Origin: Candidatus Sumerlaeia bacterium | GTDB taxonomy: Bacteria; Sumerlaeota; Sumerlaeia; SLMS01 | DNA length: 11,188 nt | Assembly (NCBI GenBank): GCA_038208905.1 | Contig: JBBQYG010000135.1 | Span: 1-11,188 of the forward strand | Direction: 5' to 3' | Part shown: positions 1 through 10,734 of the stretch, piece by piece | How the letters are laid out: every line of letters begins with the position of its first letter | How positions within the stretch are numbered: position 1 is the first letter of the stretch | Translations under genes and position numbers: made by a program | The notes under the pieces: generated by a model | Databases searched by the model: none | What the model was told of the DNA's origin: nothing | Seen by the model: only the letters and a program-made list of their open reading frames with translations

Positions 1-1227
1 GCGGAAACGAAGGTTGCCGCCAAGGTTGCCCTCGGATGCGCCGTCGTCCACCGCGTTGAGGTCGCCCGGGGCGACGCCGACATAGCTGACGGAGTCGATC
101 GGGTACACCACGCGGACGCCGAAGCCGAAGGGCTCGACGCCAGGGAGATTGCTGTCCACTTCCACCCGAACCGTGAACTGCGTGTTCGGCTGGCTGGGAT
201 CGCCCGCGATCACGCGACCAGCGACAACGGCGCGAAGGTCGGGAGTTGCGGTCGGAGAAGGCGTCGGCGTCGCCGTGGCAGTTGCCGTCGGAGAAGGCGA
301 GGGAGTCGGTGACGGGGTCGGGGTTGGCGCGATGCCAAGGCCCGCGACCGCGGTTGCGTCGAACGCGGAACCGATCTCTTCGCTGGAAAGACGGAAGAGC
401 GGGAAGTCCGTGATCGAAACGTCCCAACCGAGGCCGAGGTTGAAGGGAGCCGTAAATCCGGCGTTGCCCGTTTCGAACGTGATGTCGAAAAGGACGGGCG
501 TCGGGTCCACGTTGGTTTCGTTGAGGGGGAAGTTCGTGATGTCGCGGAAGCGGATGTTGCCGCCGCCGTTGCCTTCGACCGCGCCGTCGTCCACCGCGTT
601 CAGGTCTCCGGCGGCCACGCTGACGTAGCTGACGGAGTCGATCGGGTAGAACACGCGGACGCCGAAGCCGAAGGGCGTGACGCCGCCCACATTGTCGCTC
701 ACCTGAACTCGCACGGTGAACTGGCTGTTGGGGGCGCTGGGATCGCCGCTCAGGACGCTGGCGCTGATGATGGCCGGGGGCGCAAGGCCAAGGCCGGTCA
801 CCGCGGAAGCGTCGAACGTGGAGGCAATCTCCTCGTCCGAGAGCATGAACAGCGGGAAGTCCGTGATGGAAATATCCCACGTCATGCCAAGGTTGAACGG
901 AGCCGTGAAGCCCGCGTTGCCCGTCTCGAACGTGATGTCCATCAGCGTCGGCGTCAGGTCGACGTTGGTTTCATTGAGGGGGAAATTCGTGAAATCGCGG
1001 AAACGGACGTTGCCGCCGAGGGTGCCCTCGCTGGGTCCGTCGCCGACCGCGTTCAGATCTCCCGGCGCCACAGAGACGTAGGAAACTGAATCGATCGGGT
1101 AGGTGACCCTGATTCCAAATCCGAAGGGCGCAAGGCCCGTCGGGTTGCTGTCAACCGCTACGCGCACCGTGAACTGGCTGTTCGGTGCGGAAGGGTCGCC
1201 ACTGACTACGGAAGCGCCTATTGTCGC
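1..1227 (-). repeat. Intragenic tandem domain repeats: module 1 781-1227, module 2 328-774, module 3 (partial) 1-231
   Basis: The Gly codon of GDP lies at 1198-1200, 745-747 and 202-204, giving spacings of 453 nt (151 aa) and 543 nt (181 aa, including the linker). Hand alignment of modules 1 and 2 is gap-free with about 33 differences in 150 aa (~78% identity). Confidence 0.95.
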
Positions 1228-1308
1228 TTGTGAGTACGCCTGGCCCGTGAAGACGAGGGCCAGGAGCAGACTCCAAGCGAGGTAAAGGCTTCTTGGGAAG
1301 ACTCCCAT
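1..1308 (-). CDS. Secreted multi-cohesin-like (scaffoldin-like) protein, 3' end truncated by the window (at least 436 aa)
   Basis: Not in the ORF track; translated by hand. ATG at 1308 with GGAG 9 nt upstream, and the frame stays open to position 1. Signal peptide MGVFPRSLYLAWSLLLALVFTGQAYS|QA. Two complete ~150-aa modules follow, plus the start of a third (each GDPSxPNxQFTVRV..PFGFGxRVxYPIDSVSYV..GDLNAV..RFR), with a Pro/Thr linker between modules 2 and 3. The beta-strand pattern and module size fit cohesins. The CDS is well supported; the cohesin label is motif-based inference. Confidence 0.85.
   Translation of the reverse strand, partial: MGVFPRSLYLAWSLLLALVFTGQAYSQATIGASVVSGDPSAPNSQFTVRVAVDSNPTGLAPFGFGIRVTYPIDSVSYVSVAPGDLNAVGDGPSEGTLGGNVRFRDFTNFPLNETNVDLTPTLMDITFETGNAGFTAPFNLGMTWDISITDFPLFMLSDEEIASTFDASAVTGLGLAPPAIISASVLSGDPSAPNSQFTVRVQVSDNVGGVTPFGFGVRVFYPIDSVSYVSVAAGDLNAVDDGAVEGNGGGNIRFRDITNFPLNETNVDPTPVLFDITFETGNAGFTAPFNLGLGWDVSITDFPLFRLSSEEIGSAFDATAVAGLGIAPTPTPSPTPSPSPTATATATPTPSPTATPDLRAVVAGRVIAGDPSQPNTQFTVRVEVDSNLPGVEPFGFGVRVVYPIDSVSYVGVAPGDLNAVDDGASEGNLGGNLRFR
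241..327 (-). repeat. Pro/Thr/Ser-rich inter-module linker
   Basis: Encodes PTPTPSPTPSPSPTATATATPTPSPTATP (29 aa) between modules 2 and 3. Confidence 0.95.
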
Positions 1309-1347
1309 GGGCTTTTTCTCCAAGATATTCAGTTACATCGCGCAGGA

Positions 1348-1371
1348 CGGGCCCCGATCCATTGGGGCCCG
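1348..1371 (-). promoter_or_regulatory. Intergenic GC-rich stem-loop (mRNA stabiliser or weak terminator candidate)
   Basis: CGGGCCCC (1348-1355) / GGGGCCCG (1364-1371), an 8-bp perfect stem with an 8-nt loop, 9 nt after the stop at 1381. No U-tract follows on the minus strand. Confidence 0.55.
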
Positions 1372-1380
1372 CTTAAGGGG

Positions 1381-2073
1381 TCAGTCGGACAACATCATCC
1401 AGTCGTTGACCGCCGTCACGTTGACCGTGGCGCCGGAGAGGGTAAGGCTACCAACTTCTCCCGCGCCGGGCGGGACGATCGTCGTCCAGGGAAGGATCTT
1501 GCCGTCGTCGGCATTGCCGATCGTCTCATCCGGACCTGGGTCCAAATGGATCGAAATCGTGTAGGGCGCGGAGACCGTGGCCTGCACGACGAAGTGAAGG
1601 TCGACAAGGACCGGGTTGGTAATCGTTCCGGGGAACGTGTTTGCGGGAAAGGTCGCAGCGGCTGGCGCCACGAGGGGGTACTGGGCAAACAGCGGGTTGT
1701 TGATTGTTGCGTCGCCGATGGGGCCAAGCGTGGCCACATCGCGGAACTTGCCGGGCGTGGCCCCGTTGTCATCCTCGTCCGCGGGAGAGACTCCCACGAT
1801 GCCAAGTTCCGCTTCGGTTGCGAACGTGGCGGCAGGCAGGACCTGCGTCTCGTCGAAGCGAACGCGGAAGCTGGTGGACGACGGATTCCTGCCGGAGGTG
1901 TTGTTTGTGACGGCAACGCGAATAATGAGTGTGTCGCCAACGACGACGTTGGTTCCGCTGCCGGACATGGCGTACTCGGTCGCGACGATGTCGGCCTGTG
2001 AGAAGCCGGTCTGCGCCAGACCAAGGAGGGCTGCGACACAGCCCGTTGTTACGAAGTTATGCAATGACGGCAT
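1381..2073 (-). CDS. Secreted single cohesin-like domain protein with short C-terminal VNDWMMLSD tail
   Basis: AGGAGA 7 nt before the ATG. Signal peptide ending GFS|QA. Cohesin-like strands VVVGDTLIIRVAV, SFRVRFDETQV, LVDLHFVV, TLSGATVNV. Shares ordered motifs with the modules of 1-1308 (RVAVxxNxxGxxP, [RK]FRD, PxLxDxxF, AP[FY]). Confidence 0.8.
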   Translation of the reverse strand: MPSLHNFVTTGCVAALLGLAQTGFSQADIVATEYAMSGSGTNVVVGDTLIIRVAVTNNTSGRNPSSTSFRVRFDETQVLPAATFATEAELGIVGVSPADEDDNGATPGKFRDVATLGPIGDATINNPLFAQYPLVAPAAATFPANTFPGTITNPVLVDLHFVVQATVSAPYTISIHLDPGPDETIGNADDGKILPWTTIVPPGAGEVGSLTLSGATVNVTAVNDWMMLSD

Positions 2074-2145
2074 TGTGGGATCTCCTGTGTGGGGAAAGGC
2101 TGCTCCGGGTCAGGGTTGCAACCGGGGAGCGAGTGAAGTGGGAAG

Positions 2146-2177
2146 ACCGGGGCGGCCCATGTGGGGGCCGCCCCGGT
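2146..2177 (-). promoter_or_regulatory. Intergenic strong stem-loop (partial terminator or mRNA stabiliser candidate)
   Basis: ACCGGGGCGGCCC (2146-2158) / GGGCCGCCCCGGT (2165-2177), a 13-bp perfect stem with a 6-nt loop, ~30 nt after the stop at 2207. Followed on the minus strand by CTTCCCACTTC, which is not a real U-tract. Confidence 0.65.
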
Positions 2178-2206
2178 TCATCCGGGATTGCGTACTGCCG
2201 TTCCGA

Positions 2207-4960
2207 TTAGGGGAACGGAATGTAGGGGATGTTCCCCTGGAGCCTCTGGTAGAGGAACGTGGCGTCGATGGCGGTAACGTTGCCGTCGCGGTTGATGTCC
2301 ACACGGTCCCTGTCGGTTTCGTTAAGGGTGTTCAGGTTGAGGAAGGCCTCGAGGATGCGGATCGCGTCGGAGACGTTGATGACCCCGTTGCCATTGGCCT
2401 CGCCGAAGTTCGAGATCGAGAGGATGTCGCTCGGATCAGAGCCGGTCAGCAGCTCGTAGTCATCGCGCAGCCCGTCGGCATCGGAATCGGCGTTGTTCGG
2501 GTCGGTGCCGATGATAGCCTCGACGCTGGACGGGATGCGATCGCCATCGGGATCGTTGGCGGCGGTAAGGCCACCGCTGATCGGGCTGTTGGCGTTGAGC
2601 GGGAGGGAACCGATACGAAGCTCCGTGCCGTCGGGGATGCCGTCGCCGTCGGAATCGGCGTTGTTCGGGTTGGTACCCAGCACGCCTTCTGCAACGTCGG
2701 AGATGCCGTCGCCGTCTGTGTCAAGGTTGGGATAAACGGTGTCGAACTGACCGGGGGCCTCGCCGATGATTCCGCCGGCCGTGACCGTGGAGGAACCGCT
2801 GACCGTGCCGCCCGCGCCGACGAGAGAGCCCGGGACGCCAACGTTGAGGGTAAAGGTCGTGCCCCCGGGGGTCGTCAGGACGTCGTAGGAATTGCCGTTC
2901 AGGTCGGCGCGAAGCGAGCCCGTGATGGTCACGTTCATGCCGACGGAGAAGGGATGGTTAACCGAGGTGGTCACCTGCGGATTTGCGGCAGCGGTGATCG
3001 CCGTGATGTTGAAGGTGGGTGCGCTGGCGGGAACGATGATTGCCGCGCCCGTTCCGCCGCCAATGCCGCCGGGGCCGGAGACGTCGCCGAAGAAGTTGCC
3101 CTGAACGTCGAGGGAGGGTGCCGGTACCTCGGGCGCCGTGCCCGCGTTGTTGCCGAAAGCGATGCCGGCGAGCACATCCGTGCCAGCTCCGGCGCCGATG
3201 CCCGTTCCCAGGGGATCGTCGCTGGGCGAGGTGAAGACGTTGTCAACCACCGTCCAGGAGATGGACGTGATCACTGAGTCGAAAAGGTATATGCCCGTGC
3301 GGTTGTTGATGAAGGTGTTGCCTTCGACGATACCGGCGGGGATGTACTTCTGCGCGGCGGGGGGATCGATGGCGATGCCCTGCTGGCAGGAGTCGAACAG
3401 GTTGCCCCTGATCGATGCCGTCGTGCGGTCAACGCCAGTCCAGTTTGGGACAATCGGGACGTCGGAGCGACGGAAGTCGCGGATCAGCATGCCGGCACCC
3501 ATGGGGATGAAGCCAGCGACGCCCGGGGGAACCTTGGTGGCGTTAGGCTTGGTGAACCAGTCCTGCATGATATTCACGCGGGTGATGGTGTTGTTGGTGA
3601 AGTTCACGTTGCGGACGTTGAACAGCTTGAACGCGGCGCCCGAGTTCGGCGCGTGATCGGCAAGGTAGGCATAGGGAGCGGGATCGACGGCGGGGTCGGC
3701 CTTCACATAGGCGCCGGCATTGATCTTGTAGACTTCCAAGACCTGCTCGCCCATGTTGCGGACGGTGTTGCTGACGACATTGGCCGTTGCCGAGTAGCCG
3801 GCGGTCGGCTGGGTGCCGGTAGCGCCGGGATCTTCCCCGCGGATGGCAAAGTTGCCCCACGTGTCGATGATTGTGTTCTGCTCGATATTCATCGTCGTCC
3901 AGGTGGAATCGCCGTTTGTGGAGCGATTGGAGTCGAAGGTCCAGAAGCTGCGGATACCGACGAACTCGTTGCCGATGATATTGATCGTTCCGCGCTCGCC
4001 GCGAAGGATCGTGCCGCCGCGGCCGCCGCTGGTGCTGACGATGTTATTCTGGGCGGGGAGCGTCGTGTAGGTCGGGAATGCCGTGAGGTTGAGCGGCTGC
4101 TTTTGTGCGAAAGGAAGGCGGTTCTTGAGGCCGTCGAAGACGCAGTTGACGATGCTGAGGTCCTTGCGGTAGCCGACGCTGTTGGAGGCCGTTCCCGGAT
4201 CGACGAAGGCGGTGTTGCCGCCCGTCATCGCGAGGATCACCGCGCTGGTCGAGTTGACGCCGTTGCCGTTGGTGCCGGGGACGCCGGCGAGACGGATGTT
4301 CTCGAGCGTGAAGCCATCCGTCGTCTCGTTGACGAAGGAAGCGCCGCGCGTAAACGTGGGCTTGTTGAGCGGGTCGCCGATGATCGTGAAGTTGTCGCGC
4401 ATCTTGGTGAAGAAGGCGGTATTGGTCAGGGGCGTGTAGTAGGCGTTAACCGTGGCGTTGTTCAGGTTATTCTGGGGGAACATGATCGCTTCGTAGTACG
4501 TGCCGGCCAGCACGACGATCGTGTCTGTTCCGGGAGTGGCCGTGCCTGCGCCGATCGCCGCAATGGCGTCCCTCATCGTGCCGAAGGCATTCACGCCGAG
4601 AACGGCGCCGTTCACCGTAGAGCCATCGGTCGGGTCTGTGAAGCTTGCCGGGACGACGACGTTGTAGGCGCCCGCCAGGGGGAAGTACTCGATGTTCTCG
4701 AGGCCCGTGATGACGCTGTCGATGCCGTTGGCAAGGTTGCCGTCATCGGGGAAAGCGGTGGTGGAGAAGGCATTGGTATGGGGGTTGAAGTGGATGCGCG
4801 TCTCGACGGCGTCCTCAACTGGGGTGGTTGCGGCACTACGCGTGGGGGTGGGGCCCCAGTTGTCGTTCACGTAAATCGAAACGGCGTGGGAAAGGCCCGT
4901 GGTCGCGACGGTCATCGCGACAAGGGCCAAGCTCAGGTGGACTGCGCTTACTTTCTTCAT
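2207..4960 (-). CDS. Secreted modular protein (917 aa): right-handed parallel beta-helix region, E1-FCCH-like beta domain, bacterial TSP3 Ca-binding repeats, C-terminal dockerin
   Basis: Start moved from 5026 to the ATG at 4960 (AAGGA upstream; MKKVSAVHLSLALVAMTVATTGLSHA|VS is a typical signal peptide). Beta-helix cap FGTMRDAIAA..DTIVVLAGTYYE, rungs such as IVNCVFDG, IIGNEFVG, IEQNTIID, FTNNTIT, IRGNLFDS, VEGNTFIN, and terminal LDVQGNFFGDVSGP. DxDGDGxxD repeats at 2426-2722. Dockerin at 2210-2407. Confidence 0.9.
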   Translation of the reverse strand: MKKVSAVHLSLALVAMTVATTGLSHAVSIYVNDNWGPTPTRSAATTPVEDAVETRIHFNPHTNAFSTTAFPDDGNLANGIDSVITGLENIEYFPLAGAYNVVVPASFTDPTDGSTVNGAVLGVNAFGTMRDAIAAIGAGTATPGTDTIVVLAGTYYEAIMFPQNNLNNATVNAYYTPLTNTAFFTKMRDNFTIIGDPLNKPTFTRGASFVNETTDGFTLENIRLAGVPGTNGNGVNSTSAVILAMTGGNTAFVDPGTASNSVGYRKDLSIVNCVFDGLKNRLPFAQKQPLNLTAFPTYTTLPAQNNIVSTSGGRGGTILRGERGTINIIGNEFVGIRSFWTFDSNRSTNGDSTWTTMNIEQNTIIDTWGNFAIRGEDPGATGTQPTAGYSATANVVSNTVRNMGEQVLEVYKINAGAYVKADPAVDPAPYAYLADHAPNSGAAFKLFNVRNVNFTNNTITRVNIMQDWFTKPNATKVPPGVAGFIPMGAGMLIRDFRRSDVPIVPNWTGVDRTTASIRGNLFDSCQQGIAIDPPAAQKYIPAGIVEGNTFINNRTGIYLFDSVITSISWTVVDNVFTSPSDDPLGTGIGAGAGTDVLAGIAFGNNAGTAPEVPAPSLDVQGNFFGDVSGPGGIGGGTGAAIIVPASAPTFNITAITAAANPQVTTSVNHPFSVGMNVTITGSLRADLNGNSYDVLTTPGGTTFTLNVGVPGSLVGAGGTVSGSSTVTAGGIIGEAPGQFDTVYPNLDTDGDGISDVAEGVLGTNPNNADSDGDGIPDGTELRIGSLPLNANSPISGGLTAANDPDGDRIPSSVEAIIGTDPNNADSDADGLRDDYELLTGSDPSDILSISNFGEANGNGVINVSDAIRILEAFLNLNTLNETDRDRVDINRDGNVTAIDATFLYQRLQGNIPYIPFP
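2210..2407 (-). other. Dockerin-like domain (two F-hand Ca-binding loop + helix segments)
   Basis: FG-EANGNGVINVSD-AIRILEAFL..linker..DINRDGNVTAID-ATFLYQRLQG-NIPYIPFP at the extreme C-terminus. This matches the type I dockerin pattern GDxNxDGxxxxxD-helix repeated twice. Confidence 0.85.
2426..2722 (-). repeat. Four bacterial thrombospondin type 3-like (TSP3) repeats
   Basis: DTDGDGISDVAEGVLGTNPNNA, DSDGDGIPDGTELRIGSLPLNA, DPDGDRIPSSVEAIIGTDPNNA, DSDADGLRDDYELLTGSDPSD. Confidence 0.85.
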
Positions 4961-5334
4961 GCGTCTGTCTTCCTTTCTTCGTCTTTGTGGGTCGGGGGGA
5001 TGCCGCGTGGGCTCCCCTTTGTTCACTGGGGTTATTTTACAGCAACGGCGATGCGGCGAAATCTAAGGACGGCTGAACTGGCTTGCTTGGACTCTCCTTT
5101 CGGGCGTTTCCCGCCTTGTCGCTACTGCCTGCGGCCCGCCGTTTCCCGTTTGGATGCACAAGTTGCCGAAAGCGGCAAGCCGGGCCCGTGAGAGGCGCGC
5201 GACAAAGTGGGGGAAACCGGTGGTGGTAGGTGTTACAATTGCCAACATGAGAGCGGGCGCAAGCCAAAAGTCGCCGCTGGGCCGATTCCGGGATGTGGAG
5301 GAGGATTTCGGGCGTTGAACTTGGAGCCTTGCTT

Positions 5335-6072
5335 TCAGGTAATCTCGATTCCCAGCCGAATGGCTTCCTCGAAGGCGGCAGCGGTCATCGTGGTCCCCGA
5401 GGATACCGTCATCCTTGTCGCACCCTCTCGGGAGGCTTTCCTGACATCGTCAACGGTGAGAAAGTTCCGCTGGATTGCAGGGGAATCAGGTTTCTCACCG
5501 CCCGATTCGCTGGCCTGAACGGAGGGCGTTGCTTCGGTGACGACTCCCCATGCGGCCAGCTCCTGAATGGCTCGCTCCAGCTTCTCCCCCAGGCTGCCCA
5601 TCCCCCGCCGAAACGGCGCGGGGGATTCGGGCGAAAAGGTGGGGACGGTGGCGAGGTGGACGTCCCTTCCAGCGGCGAGTGCTTCGAAAATAAATTCGAG
5701 TTCCGGCGTGGGAGCGACGCCGTGGGAGAGGGCTATCAACTGCCACGGGGAAAACCCGGCCAGCATGACCCGGCGACGGGTCGCCAGCAGCCGATCGCGA
5801 TCGGAAGCGGCGCCCGGCATCGGCAAGACGCGCGCCTGGGGGGCGGCGGCGGCTAGGACACTTGCCCCATACCGCGAGGCGAAATCGGGGAGCATGATGA
5901 TCGAGACGCCCGGCTCCGTAGCGGCCCCCTCGCGGATCGCAGCGAGCGTCGCCTCCAGCGAAAGGGCGTATCCACCGGCAAGCACGATCGTGGCGCCCGG
6001 GGCCGATGGGGCCGGGGAGAGAAGCTCCGCGACGACCTTCGCCACGATGGCGCGAAGCTGGGACTCATCCAC
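5335..6072 (-). CDS. Bacterial microcompartment-associated flavoprotein/PduM-like protein with N-terminal encapsulation-peptide-like helix
   Basis: GTG start with an in-frame TAA shortly upstream and no clear RBS. N-terminus MDESQLRAIVAKVVAELL followed by a Pro/Ala linker. Core IVLAGG..LIALSHGVAPTPELEFIFEALAAGRDV..LAAWGV. C-terminal FLTVDDVRKA..MTVSSGTTMTAAAFEEAIRLGIEI resembles the C-terminal module of PduM and BMC-locus flavoproteins. Recognised from memory of these families. Confidence 0.65.
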   Translation of the reverse strand: MDESQLRAIVAKVVAELLSPAPSAPGATIVLAGGYALSLEATLAAIREGAATEPGVSIIMLPDFASRYGASVLAAAAPQARVLPMPGAASDRDRLLATRRRVMLAGFSPWQLIALSHGVAPTPELEFIFEALAAGRDVHLATVPTFSPESPAPFRRGMGSLGEKLERAIQELAAWGVVTEATPSVQASESGGEKPDSPAIQRNFLTVDDVRKASREGATRMTVSSGTTMTAAAFEEAIRLGIEIT

Positions 6073-7689: not shown

Positions 7690-9399
7690 TTACTTTCCGG
7701 CGTCCTTCTTGAAGCTGACGTGGCGGGCTTCCATGATGCCGAAAAGGAGCTTGGGCTTTCTCTCGGTGATCACGTTGACGGAGCCGCGGTCGGGGGCGTC
7801 CTGCTTGATGGTGAGCAGGCGGCGTGCGGCGCGATCGTTGATGTCGAGCGTGGCCGGCGTGCTGCTTTCCTCCGTGGCGCCAATGTAGTCGGCGCGGAAT
7901 TCGTAGCTGCCGGGCTTGAGCGTCACCTGAAACACGTCCTTGGGCTCGATCACGGTTTCGAGGACGAGTTGGAAGCGGTCCTCCCCCATCGTGGTATCGA
8001 AGGCGCGGAGGAGGATCGGGTCGGAGAGTTCGTTGAAAACCTCGGACTCGTTCCAGATGGGCGTGTAGTCGCTATAGTACTGGTCGGCGGCGCCCTCCCT
8101 CACGGGATGGCGGACCTTGTCCTTGTCCATGGTTCCGGAAAACAGGTCCGACTTGAGCACGATGATAGCGCGCGACTCGGCCCGGAGAGCGCCAAGATTA
8201 ACGGGGCCCTTGGAGGGGGCTGTGGGGGCGTAGGCGAGGACGACGAGGTTGCGCTCGCGCGGGAGGCTGACGTTGCGATAGGTCATGGCAGGGAGTGGTT
8301 CCTTGTACTTGTAAACCAATTCCTCGTCGGGGCCGATGAAGGTCAGGTGCATGGGGAAGGGGGTGTAGTTGATGAACTGGGTATCCTCGAAGCCCTTGCT
8401 CATGTAGGCTTTGCTGGCAAGAAGCTCCGCTTCGAGCTTCGGGGTGTCGGCCTCGAAGTAGGGAATCAGGAGTTGGGTGAGGCCGTTAATGACCTCTTCG
8501 CGCGTGGGCGGGGGAACCGGGGAGGGAGACGGGGTGGCGGCCACTTCGTTGGACGGGGGTGTGGGGATCCAGATCGTGCGGAAGCCAATGTCGTCGCGGG
8601 TTAGGGTGGGCGGATTGGCGTCGCGGGCGGTGGCGCGGAGGGCGTTGAGGCGGCTGAAATAGCTTCCGCCGCGGATGACGCGGGTCTCGCCGTCGCCGGG
8701 CCCCGGGGGATTGTCGCTGGGTGCCTGGGCATAGTACTCGCGGCCAAACCAGTCGGCGACCCATTCGCTGACGTTGCCACTCATATTGAAGATGCCATAG
8801 CCGGAAACGTCTCCAGTGGCTTCCTTCACGGGGGCAGTCAGGCCCTTGGGGCCGCGCTCGGCGACCACTTGTTGGGCCGTGGGGCGGGTGCTTCCCGTGA
8901 CATAAACCGAGTTGCTGGGGCCGCGCGCGGCCTTCTCCCACATGGCCTCCGTGGGGAGCGCCTTGTCGGCCCAGTTGGCGTAGGCGGCGGCGGCGGTCCA
9001 GGGAATCGCGCAGACAGGGCGATCCTCCTCCAGCAGCTTTTCATTGCCGGCGGGGCGGGGGCGCTGGGCCGTGCCGCCGTCGCGGAGGAACGCTGTGTAC
9101 TGCGCATTGGAGATTTCGTACTTGTCGATGTAGAAGGAGCGGAGCGTGACCTCGCGCTCTGGACCCTCGTTGGGCGCCCCGCCGTTGTCGGCGTTCAGGC
9201 CCATCTTGAACGTGCCGTGGGGGATAAGAACCATGACCGAGCCGTCCTTCTCCCAAACGATCTCCTTGGGGAAGGTTGATCCGTGCTCGTTGGGAACCTG
9301 CTCGGTGCCCTCCACGGGCTTGGGCTGGCCGAACGCTGCGCCCGCGAGGACGAGGGTGGCCAGACTGGAGATAATCCCGGCTTTGGCGGAACGCATCAT
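7690..9399 (-). CDS. Secreted formylglycine-generating-enzyme (FGE-sulfatase/SUMF1) domain protein with uncharacterised C-terminal region
   Basis: Preferred start is the ATG at 9399 (AAGGA 8 nt upstream; signal peptide MMRSAKAGIISSLATLVLAGAAFG|QP); the ORF track start at 9483 is an alternative. Motifs MVLIPHGTFKMG, FYIDKYEISNAQY, LPTEAMWEKAARG, YGIFNMSGNVSEWVADW, RVIRGGS, DIGFR, then a Pro-rich linker. Confidence 0.9.
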   Translation of the reverse strand: MMRSAKAGIISSLATLVLAGAAFGQPKPVEGTEQVPNEHGSTFPKEIVWEKDGSVMVLIPHGTFKMGLNADNGGAPNEGPEREVTLRSFYIDKYEISNAQYTAFLRDGGTAQRPRPAGNEKLLEEDRPVCAIPWTAAAAYANWADKALPTEAMWEKAARGPSNSVYVTGSTRPTAQQVVAERGPKGLTAPVKEATGDVSGYGIFNMSGNVSEWVADWFGREYYAQAPSDNPPGPGDGETRVIRGGSYFSRLNALRATARDANPPTLTRDDIGFRTIWIPTPPSNEVAATPSPSPVPPPTREEVINGLTQLLIPYFEADTPKLEAELLASKAYMSKGFEDTQFINYTPFPMHLTFIGPDEELVYKYKEPLPAMTYRNVSLPRERNLVVLAYAPTAPSKGPVNLGALRAESRAIIVLKSDLFSGTMDKDKVRHPVREGAADQYYSDYTPIWNESEVFNELSDPILLRAFDTTMGEDRFQLVLETVIEPKDVFQVTLKPGSYEFRADYIGATEESSTPATLDINDRAARRLLTIKQDAPDRGSVNVITERKPKLLFGIMEARHVSFKKDAGK

Positions 9400-9717
9400 T
9401 GAACGAATCCTTGCTGGCGGATAACCCATGTTGCTACCCCGTCGGATAGAAGAAATCCTCCACGGAGGCAAGCGGCTCTTCATCCCTATTTATACTCGCC
9501 CTGTTGTCTGCCCCACCCAAAGAGGAGAGCAACAGGTTTCAGCCCCCCGGCCCGCGCATCAGACCGGGGCCGACCCGGCAGGGTTGGGCGGGGAAACCGC
9601 GCGAGAGGCGATTTTCCCAAGTTTCCCCTCTGGTGCGAGGTTGAGTTATTGACCGCGTGAGGCTATTCGAGGCAACGTGGTGTCGATTGACAATCTTTCA
9701 CCCCGGAGGGTCCCGCC

Positions 9718-10734
9718 ATGAAGCCCGTGGCGCCGCATCAGGCGCGCTTCTATGAAAAAGCCCCCTGGGACACGGTGATCTGCAAGCTGTGCCCCCACGA
9801 GTGCGTCATCGCGCCCTCGCGGACGGGCGTGTGCGGCGTTCGGACGAATCGCGACGGCGAGTTAACTGTGGACAACTATGGCCGCGTGACGAGCGAGGAC
9901 TTCCTATCATCCGAGGATCTTCCCCTCTATCATTTCAAGCCCTCCATGACCTGGGTGCAGTATTCGGGGCGCGGATGCACGATGCGGTGCCCTTTCTGCA
10001 ATACCTACAACTACAGCCAGGTCGGTGGCGTCCGCTCGTTTGCCATGACGCCCGGCCAGCTCGTCGCTACGGCGATCGAAAAGCGTTGCGGGGGAATTGC
10101 CTTTGGCGTTAACGAGCCAGCCACCATGCACGAGTTCATTTGCGATGTGTTCATGGAAGCGCGGGACGCCGGCCTCCAGACCCATGTCGCCACAGGCGGC
10201 ATGTGGAGCCCCGACGCCCTGCGCGAAGTGGCGCCGATGCTCAGCGCCGCCACCTTCGGCCTCAAGGGCCTGAAGTCCAGCTTCCTTCAGACGATCCTCG
10301 GCGCGGACCTCGATGCGATCCTTGGGAATATCGACCTGCTCATGACGATGGGGGTCCACGTCGAGTTCTCTTGGCTCGTAATCCCCGGGGAGACGGACGA
10401 CCCAGCACAGGCGGAGCCGTTGGCCCGCATTGTGGGCCAATTCGATCAGGTGCCCCCGATCGTCTTGCTCCCGTACCAACCTGCCTTTACATGGAATCGC
10501 GAAGGCGCCGAACTCGGGCACCTGCAAGCGTTTCGCGCCGCGCTGAAGAACGTGTACCCGGGGACGATCTACGAGGCCCACCCGGAAAGCCTCGCCCAGA
10601 ACACCTGCTGCCCCAAGTGCGCCCGCCCCCTCGTCCGCCGCGGCCTCGCCGGCCTGATCGTCACCTCGCATGACGGGGGGCGCGCCAAGGAAAACTGCCC
10701 GGGGTGTGGGACTCCGGTGCCGTATGTAGCGTAG
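9718..10734 (+). CDS. Radical SAM enzyme, AmmeMemoRadiSam (AmrS)/PFL-activase-like, divergent
   Basis: GGAGG RBS. N-terminal CKLCPHEC..GVCGVR, PLYHFKP, radical SAM motif CTMRCPFC (CxxxCxxC), NEP, C-terminal CPKC..CPGC. Confidence 0.88.
   Translation: MKPVAPHQARFYEKAPWDTVICKLCPHECVIAPSRTGVCGVRTNRDGELTVDNYGRVTSEDFLSSEDLPLYHFKPSMTWVQYSGRGCTMRCPFCNTYNYSQVGGVRSFAMTPGQLVATAIEKRCGGIAFGVNEPATMHEFICDVFMEARDAGLQTHVATGGMWSPDALREVAPMLSAATFGLKGLKSSFLQTILGADLDAILGNIDLLMTMGVHVEFSWLVIPGETDDPAQAEPLARIVGQFDQVPPIVLLPYQPAFTWNREGAELGHLQAFRAALKNVYPGTIYEAHPESLAQNTCCPKCARPLVRRGLAGLIVTSHDGGRAKENCPGCGTPVPYVA

Follow-up and report, generated by a model that had tools for sequence, protein, structure and literature searches.

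Introduction

Clostridial and ruminococcal cellulosomes are built on CipA/ScaA-type scaffoldins and use type I to III cohesin-dockerin pairs. Cohesin and dockerin modules are also widespread outside cellulosome producers. The locus examined here raises the question of what such modules assemble when no recognisable cellulase stands beside them. It lies on the minus strand of an 11,188-base contig (C135), analysed over its whole length and referred to below as the window, from a 4.24 Mb genome of a Candidatus Sumerlaeota bacterium (301 contigs, 93.9% complete). Three open reading frames (ORFs), here named gA, gB and gC, follow one another head to tail in the same orientation and encode a secreted beta-helix protein ending in a dockerin, a secreted single cohesin, and the N-terminal part of a scaffoldin with repeated cohesins. 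The locus is probably the core of a non-cellulosomal cohesin-dockerin assembly.

An initial annotation had described the three genes as an operon for a C-terminal dockerin protein, a one-module cohesin-like protein and a multi-module cohesin-like protein with a Pro/Thr linker, probably from outside the classical cellulosome producers. The gene layout is borne out by the ORFs, their ribosome-binding sites (RBSs), the Pfam matches and the identities between modules, which all agree. The origin of the genome agrees as well: its RpoB is nearest to that of an uncultured Candidatus Sumerlaeota genome (69% identity over residues 2-955), against 52-59% identity, over the longest matched segments, to genomes of Hydrogenedentota, Chloroflexi and Puniceicoccaceae. 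ApbC was tried as a phylum marker and set aside for RpoB, its identities of 41-46% leaving the phyla unseparated. No published link between Sumerlaeota and cohesins or dockerins was found in the papers searched.

The Repeated Modules of gC Are Divergent Cohesins

The gC frame starts at ATG 1309, with GGAG upstream, or alternatively at TTG 1323, and leaves the contig at base 1. It contains three module-profile matches; the modules are about 150 amino acids (aa) each and carry the motif YPIDSV at residues 75, 226 and 407. The AlphaFold2 (AF2) model of module 1 is a jelly-roll beta-sandwich. A Foldseek search with this model against the PDB gave 37 matches at E≤1e-3, and among the matches listed nearly all are cohesins, including those of types I to III, a C. 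perfringens cohesin-like module, the non-cellulosomal cohesin 2xdh of A. fulgidus and 5nrm_A (4.7e-5). The model and these matches show the cohesin jelly-roll proposed at the outset, not an Ig or Calx-beta fold.

Two profiles were built for the modules, one from five modules of the genome itself and one from a 67-row alignment. Searched against 1.84 billion cluster representatives, the five-module profile retrieved 120 at E≤1e-3 and 62 at E≤1e-10; the module repeat is therefore not a chance pattern. Many of the 120 are long (1,500-2,700 aa), and the profile matches them in up to nine or more stretches. Among the 92 hits of at most 1000 aa, to which the Pfam scan was limited, 14 have a Pfam Cohesin match over the cut-off and 11 more have one at E≤0.01. 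In those compared (P0012, P0021, P0022, P0058, P0062 and P0101), the Cohesin match coincides with the region matched by the profile. Scaffoldins of relatives score 55.8, 66.9 and 36.3 bits against Pfam Cohesin. The modules are thereby homologous to recognised cohesins through intermediate sequences. Against PDB sequences, the five-row profile returned no cohesin (top matches, MccC proteins at E 0.4), and the two best matches of the 67-row profile are the cohesins 4ums and 5lxv, at E of only about 0.1.

Fold model, Foldseek matches, the profile bridge to Pfam Cohesin and the alignment of gB described below place the modules in the cohesin superfamily. By curated score they are a divergent branch of it and not members of PF00963: gC matches no Pfam family at E≤0.1, only sub-threshold linker-type matches came from NCBIfam, and the best Pfam Cohesin match in the whole genome (22.3 bits) lies on another contig. 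Contigs of all four public sequencing runs compared continue gC past base 1 with a diverged module remainder and then linker-like sequence. In one public run a 12-base insertion is present at position 261, within the Pro/Thr linker, and linker length thus varies between populations.

A Free Single Cohesin

The gB frame runs from ATG 2073, with AGGAG upstream, to the stop codon at 1381-1383 and has no Pfam or NCBIfam match at E≤0.1. Its supposed likeness to cohesins was upheld by hhalign, which aligned gB to the 67-row module profile over 137 columns with a probability of 97.7% and an E of 1.8e-12, leaving an insertion of about 28 aa; a custom hidden Markov model (HMM) of the modules matched gB at E 2e-15. 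Judged by these sequence comparisons, gB belongs to the same family as the gC modules and joins their jelly-roll fold through the hhalign match. Among similar-length proteins of a set of 5.8 billion, gB has only one other homologue, at 87% identity. The best match outside its own genome is a 213-aa small gene of a related genome (G003), placed between a dockerin gene and a scaffoldin.

A Beta-Helix Protein with TSP3 Repeats and a Dockerin

The gA frame starts at ATG 4960, with the RBS GAAAGGAAG upstream, and stops at 2207-2209. Its N-terminus, MKKVSAVHLSLALVAMTVATTGLSHA, was judged signal-peptide-like by eye. The AF2 model has a predicted local distance difference test (pLDDT) score of 73.8 overall and below 50 over residues 1-25. 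The larger part of the protein is a parallel beta-helix, for which VIA-align gave Z 16-20 and root-mean-square deviations (rmsd) of 2.8-4.0 over about 300-350 aligned residues. The best match is the polysaccharide lyase RbmB of Vibrio (9ozl; Z 20.2, rmsd 3.3 Å, 316 residues aligned), followed by the epimerases AlgE4 and AlgE6 (Z 19.5-19.7); NosD, lyases of polysaccharide lyase family 6 (PL6), polygalacturonases and tailspikes or phage depolymerases reach Z 16-18. The top Foldseek matches are PL6 and the glycoside hydrolase (GH) families GH87 and GH110, and there are weak matches to the beta-helix repeat TIGR03804 and to DUF4957. Because Z declines smoothly over many beta-helix families, the fold is established and the family is not, and no catalytic family scores over the cut-off in Pfam or NCBIfam. 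The fold is typical of polysaccharide-acting enzymes. The earlier statement that no glycoside hydrolase is visible thus holds for Pfam and needs qualifying for structure, the beta-helix being most like polysaccharide lyases, epimerases and depolymerases. The cargo of the locus is a beta-helix/TSP3 protein, as had been proposed and as Pfam TSP3_bac and VIA-align concur.

The TSP3 region holds four DxDxDG-like motifs, read by eye, whose Asp columns are invariant in the homologue alignment. The C-terminal dockerin had been recognised at the outset and is supported by a Dockerin_1 (PF00404) match of 33.1 bits against a cut-off of 22.9 (6.5e-8; residues 878-929 of the 939-aa frame). In a Dockerin_1 search of its own genome it scored 39.4 bits, and with a custom HMM 98 bits. 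An alignment of 23 dockerins shows the segments GDANxDGxxxxxD and DINRDGxVDNVD, whose counterparts in gA are EANGNGVINVSD and DINRDGNVTAID; we take these to be the canonical calcium-loop positions of dockerins. The gA dockerin thus has two duplicated calcium-binding loop-helix (F-hand) segments. Ten full-length homologues of gA, all metagenomic and 34-54% identical, carry TSP3 repeats, a dockerin or both. The small domain inserted behind the beta-helix occurs at the same position in only one of 14 aligned homologues (P0131), and P0134 and P0135 carry different large inserts in other parts of the protein.

Predicted Pairing of Dockerin and Module

Complex prediction for gC module 1 and the gA dockerin, both given as alignments, returned a score of 0.52 (runs 0.52, 0.55 and 0.34), and the best of three controls scored 0.01. 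At least 96% of contacts are shared between the runs, and the pLDDT of the partner is no lower than 63. Of 157 solved complexes 116 attain the score mark used, as do 2 of 215 mismatched pairs; with a score of 0.60 or less it is attained by only 18 of the 157 solved complexes and by both passing mismatches. The prediction lends weak support to a module 1-gA dockerin complex and, since cohesin-dockerin complexes have already been solved, may reflect likeness to them only.

Conservation in Related Genomes

Ten of 40 related genomes have a match to the module profile, in open frames of 1,418-2,582 aa. Six related loci (G003, G005, G007, G011, G012 and G014) were mapped with custom HMMs. In all six a small single-cohesin gene adjoins a scaffoldin of 5-9 modules, and in four a gA-like dockerin protein is adjacent: in G003, in G012, in G007 with the order permuted, and in G005, where only the dockerin end is present at the contig start. 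In G014 the contig ends beside the small cohesin and the scaffoldin. In G011 (L024:4528-5871) the small cohesin is fused with TSP3 repeats and a dockerin in one 448-aa protein adjoining the scaffoldin. The same cohesin-TSP3-dockerin layout is present in the metagenome proteins P0048, P0058, P0070, P0072 and P0100, and fusions of the G011 type hint that the small cohesin is an adaptor. The co-location of the three genes, one of the checks set by the initial annotation, is thus found whole or in part in all six related loci.

Dockerins co-occur with the modules. A dockerin match at E≤1e-14 was obtained in 8 of the 40 related genomes, and all eight are among the ten with a module match; five of the eight had supplied rows of the dockerin query and match by construction, and kin are not independent. 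Dockerin matches number 19-29 in relatives and lie on enzymes that include GH57, S8 and M8. In the best-assembled relative (G012), 17 dockerin ORFs were examined; they include a GH57 protein with carbohydrate-binding modules (CBM25/CBM53), an S8 subtilase, an M8-like peptidase, two C39-like giants, three proteins with FG-GAP repeats (one of them the S8 subtilase) and one cohesin-plus-dockerin adaptor. This variety indicates that the system carries mixed cargo elsewhere in the lineage.

A quick tree of 57 modules placed six of seven small cohesins, on long branches, in one group together with first scaffoldin modules, at a weak Shimodaira-Hasegawa-like approximate likelihood ratio test (SH-aLRT) value of 81; a separate small-cohesin type is not established, given the weak group and the long branches. 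In the same tree, each scaffoldin module of G012, G005 and G014 groups with the module at the same place in the other arrays, whereas those of the present genome (G000), G011 and G007 cluster within their own genome, which suggests that some arrays are old and position-specific and others recently homogenised or re-duplicated. Two locus searches were also made: the gA-homologue alignment returned 29 loci from many phyla, matched mostly in the TSP3 and dockerin parts and uninformative on synteny, and the five-module alignment returned no confirmed relative.

Cohesins and Dockerins in the Genome

All stop-to-stop frames of the genome were searched with custom HMMs. Three dockerin ORFs were found, namely gA, a 933-aa protein (C16) and a 295-aa protein (C43). 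The 933-aa protein has Laminin_G_3, Cadherin_3 and TSP3 matches and a weak pectinesterase-like start (21.2 bits, below cut-off). No Pfam glycoside hydrolase domain is present on any of the three in this 94% complete genome, and the system is accordingly not a cellulosome. Cohesin-family modules number three in gC and one each in gB, a 499-aa protein (C11) and a 734-aa fragment (C113). With at least three modules in gC and 5-9 in relatives, the scaffoldin carries several cohesins.

The 499-aa protein (L006:2998-4494) has a signal peptide, one dockerin-like calcium loop (DLNGDRRIDAGD), about 270 aa of Pro/Thr/Ser linker and a single cohesin module. This module retains the classical LYDPNAV motif and bridges the YPIDSV modules of gC to ordinary cohesins. 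A 567-aa ORF on another contig (C80; L009:1820-3520) matches Pfam Cohesin below threshold (20.6 bits, over model positions 9-55) and was missed by the module HMM; it may be a further, different cohesin-like protein.

A Candidate End Domain of the Scaffoldin

At E 1e-39 to 1e-87, the last ~340 residues of the 734-aa fragment on C113 correspond to the very C-terminal ends of the scaffoldins in four of the six related loci (G005, G007, G003 and G012). The shared C-terminal domain of about 330 aa is internally duplicated and unannotated; its copy on C113 lies in L005:1157-2203. Besides C113 it ends 12 other large proteins of the same genome, on 12 further contigs, at least 13 proteins in all, and the other domains on its carriers include two S8 subtilases, CHRD, GH115_C, BACON, DUF5666 and an InlB-type repeat. 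Weaker, partial copies occur at the C-terminal end of further proteins, another subtilase included. The domain is found at E≤1e-5 in 28 of 41 related genomes, among them all ten from the same family; matches rise to 44-67 in a single genome, and genomes without the cohesin family have the domain too. It has no PDB sequence match at E≤10 and nothing meaningful in NCBIfam; Pfam matched one of 16 members, to CBM_4_9 at E 0.033. ESM Atlas features give a weak pointer, of use as a lead only, to galactose-binding-like domains, CBM_4_9 and DUF642 (0.90-0.92, low recognition 1746).

By its position and spread, this domain is a candidate for the general end domain with which the lineage retains or sorts proteins at the surface, and by analogy with the relatives gC most likely ends in it. 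Public contigs contain no bridge from the window to C113, which is the putative end of gC on the likeness to relatives. The initial statement that no SLH or LPxTG anchor is visible is not borne out as worded: it was drawn from an incomplete gC, and four of six relatives' scaffoldins share the end domain with the C113 fragment. In Pfam, no SLH domain, sortase signal or CBM3 appeared in gC (incomplete), the C113 fragment or five relatives' scaffoldins. Por_Secre_tail (TIGR04183) has one 26-bit match in the genome, which falls within a subtilase and on no cohesin protein. SprA was not recovered in the genome, a result that is uninformative in that the control genomes were silent as well.

Feature Map, Transcription and Surroundings

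The features of the locus are summarized in Table 1.

Table 1. Features of the cohesin-dockerin locus, with positions in the window.
Feature	Position	Strand	Description
gA	2207-4960	-	Secreted beta-helix/TSP3/dockerin protein; 917 aa from ATG 4960; stop-to-stop frame reaches 5062 (939 aa)
gA signal peptide	4883-4960	-	26 aa, ends SHA; by eye from translation
gA right-handed parallel beta-helix	3041-4882	-	About residues 27-640 of 917; AF2 pLDDT mostly 80-95
gA inserted small domain	2795-3025	-	Residues 646-722, about 77 aa, between beta-helix and TSP3 repeats; pLDDT <50
gA TSP3-type calcium-binding repeats	2426-2728	-	Pfam TSP3_bac, 2 stretches, 2.3e-13
gA dockerin	2210-2425	-	72 aa, two F-hand loops, conserved GNIPYIPFP tail
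Hairpin 3' of gA stop	2147-2176	-	12-bp, GC-rich, no U tract
gB	1381-2073	-	Secreted single divergent cohesin, 230 aa, without dockerin or anchor
Hairpin 3' of gB stop	1347-1372	-	9-bp, GC-rich, no U tract
gC	1-1323	-	Scaffoldin N-terminal part: signal peptide and at least 3 cohesin modules; open at base 1 (contig end)
gC cohesin module 1	769-1236	-	AF2 pLDDT 93.6, predicted template modelling (pTM) score 0.89, all-beta
gC cohesin module 2	316-780	-	75% identical to module 1; profile match 2.9e-79
gC Pro/Thr linker	229-327	-	Residues 333-365, from translation
gC cohesin module 3	1-240	-	First ~80 residues only; 70% identical to module 1

Both intergenic gaps fold more stably than shuffled sequence. 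The minimum free energy (MFE) of 2074-2209 is -57.6 kcal/mol (z -4.30), equalled by none of 200 shuffles, and that of 1310-1386 is -27.4 kcal/mol (z -3.03), equalled by one of 200. A terminator scan found 4 candidates where 4.4 are expected by chance, and the hairpin between gA and gB is not among them. No sigma-70-like promoter was found in positions 1-5400 by the promoter scan. The operon proposed at first stands as far as the shared orientation of the genes goes; for co-transcription it does not carry over, the GC-rich hairpins in both gaps leaving that point open.

Immediately upstream of gA lies a 245-aa ORF (5335-6072, minus strand) that neither Pfam nor NCBIfam matches at E≤0.1. A 597-aa protein encoded three genes upstream of gA (7690-9483, minus strand) has an N-terminal FGE-sulfatase domain (171.6 bits) and a partial likeness to PorK/GldK (90 bits, far below cut-off); about 290 aa of its C-terminal half are unannotated. 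On the plus strand, 9718-10734 encodes a radical SAM protein resembling the AmmeMemoRadiSam system enzyme (143 bits, cut-off 220), and neither a Memo nor an AMMECR1 partner was seen for it within the window. The sequence is present in 20 public runs of 15 studies, labelled as freshwater, microbial mat, sediment and biofilm metagenomes; no RNA runs are among those listed.

Comparison with Known Systems

Like cellulosomes, the present system combines tandem cohesins on a non-catalytic scaffoldin with a C-terminal two-loop dockerin on a partner protein and with Pro/Thr linkers. Free single cohesins also have counterparts there, the autonomous R. flavefaciens cohesins 4n2o and 4wkz being among the fold matches of module 1. 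Unlike in cellulosomes, Pfam shows no glycoside hydrolase or cellulase domain on any of the three dockerin proteins, the parts seen hold no CBM3, SLH domain or sortase signal, and the phylum is another one.

The scaffoldin-like protein of Candidatus Stygibacter (Cloacimonadota) ends in what is presumably a type IX secretion C-terminal domain. According to the accessible text of its description, which cites Lasica et al. (2017) for that domain, the organism is likewise of a candidate phylum outside Bacillota and has a very large, non-catalytic tandem-cohesin protein whose C-terminal domain is proposed for cell attachment, with dockerins on GH57, S8 and other enzymes (Williams et al., 2021; PMC8542988). 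The relative G012 has GH57 and S8 dockerin proteins too. The Stygibacter scaffoldin carries CBM2/CBM3 in the same text (PMC8542988), whereas no CBM was found on the scaffoldin here; the end domain here is the unannotated one of about 330 aa, the window modules escape Pfam, and a free single cohesin, a beta-helix dockerin protein and a scaffoldin form a conserved trio.

A second comparison is offered by the "planctosome" of freshwater Planctomycetes (Nemodlikiaceae). In the accessible part of that report, cohesins and dockerins occur with TSP3 and are unrelated to cellulose breakdown, and the non-cellulosomal assembly is proposed from sequence alone; the cohesins of its proteins are single ones, the anchor is a lamin-tail domain and the cargo consists of peptidases (Andrei et al., 2019; PMC6461901). 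The present lineage differs from this in its multi-cohesin scaffoldins (5-9 modules in relatives), its end domain and its beta-helix partner. With cellulosome-like cohesin-dockerin systems outside Bacillota already in print, at least in the portions of these two reports that are accessible (PMC6461901, PMC8542988), the suggestion that the assembly could be undescribed goes too far. What is new is the lineage, the Pfam-invisible divergent cohesin branch, the conserved trio with a free cohesin and the unannotated end domain.

Proposed Mechanism and Alternative Explanations

In the proposed mechanism, gC would be a secreted scaffoldin whose tandem divergent cohesins are joined by Pro/Thr linkers, and by analogy with its relatives' counterparts it would be held on the cell envelope or a glycan by the lineage-specific ~330-aa C-terminal domain. 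The gA product, a secreted parallel beta-helix protein, is probably an enzyme that cleaves or modifies a polysaccharide and would dock onto the scaffold by means of its C-terminal dockerin and calcium-binding TSP3 repeats. The free cohesin gB, of the same family, would probably bind a dockerin as adaptor, cap or regulator. A further-reaching idea, possible though less than probable, is that Sumerlaeota and their kin have a surface-holding mode of their own based on the two-lobed ~330-aa domain on up to dozens of large proteins per genome, of which the scaffoldin would be one client; the trio would then add a regulated plug-in layer, with the loading of the scaffold under the control of the free cohesin.

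Several observations weigh against a cohesin-dockerin assembly as proposed here. Pfam Cohesin (PF00963) has no match on gB or gC at E≤0.1, neither module profile reaches a PDB cohesin by sequence at a significant E, and module 1 aligns to solved cohesins with only moderate template modelling (TM) scores of 0.44-0.62 at 8-17% identity. The tail of the profile search also holds unrelated beta-sandwich repeat proteins (HYR_4C, Flg_new). Three dockerin ORFs for at least six modules are few for an enzyme-display machine. The complex prediction is weak, the intergenic hairpins leave co-transcription of the trio open, gC is incomplete, and its proposed anchor is taken from relatives and the unlinked C113 fragment, in a domain without known fold or family. 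The small number of dockerin proteins and the weak complex prediction would suit a giant adhesin, in which the modules are structural or adhesive beta-sandwich repeats that recruit nothing, while gA uses its dockerin and TSP3 repeats only for stabilisation by calcium binding or for binding something else. BACON and Ig-like repeats on some relatives' scaffoldins would fit this too, and in Omnitrophota giant proteins that carry dockerin or cohesin-type repeats have been interpreted as adhesins, in the accessible text of that study (PMC10066038). This explanation is nevertheless unlikely: a dockerin gene remains adjacent to the scaffoldin across families, the strong dockerin matches are confined to module-bearing genomes (8 of 8), the 19-29 dockerins of relatives sit on enzymes, and the fold matches are cohesins that bind dockerins.

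The cohesin-dockerin assembly could also take a narrower form, in which it would not serve feeding but would present gA as a glycan lyase for trimming exopolysaccharide or biofilm matrix made by the cell itself, after the manner of RbmB in Vibrio cholerae. RbmB heads the structural matches of gA, the trio conserves a gA-like protein as the partner, and the sequence occurs in mat, biofilm, sediment and freshwater metagenomes. The Z scores, however, fall from 20 to 16 without a step over many beta-helix families and single none out, and the peptidases and starch-type GH57 among the dockerin cargo of G012 suggest nutrient polymers; a role in matrix remodelling is rather unlikely. That the repeats and the gene order come from mis-assembly of the metagenome is hardly credible. 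The contig does end inside a repeat, and public contigs are fragmented here, with joints between repeat copies; yet the same sequence is present at ≥90% in all four independent public runs compared in detail, 7 of the 20 public runs with the sequence contain at least half of the sampled words, and the same architecture recurs in six other genomes, one of them assembled in 10 contigs.

Implications

In the accessible text of a 2024 genome survey, four genomes are classed as borderline "scaffoldin-containing" with at most two cohesins, three of them Bacillota and one a species of the Planctomycetes-Verrucomicrobia-Chlamydiae (PVC) group (PMC11557425). The modules of the window escape the Pfam model and yet form scaffoldins of 5-9 modules in relatives, within a candidate phylum; counting of the Pfam type therefore probably undercounts multi-cohesin scaffoldins. 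The compact set of one dockerin protein, one free cohesin and one repeated cohesin protein bears on how such assemblies work in bacteria that are likely diderm, and on what replaces the SLH, sortase and type IX anchors. Divergent cohesin-dockerin pairs would also be useful as orthogonal parts for designer protein scaffolds. For the lineage itself, the ~330-aa domain may be a new sorting or anchoring signal that serves much of its exoproteome.

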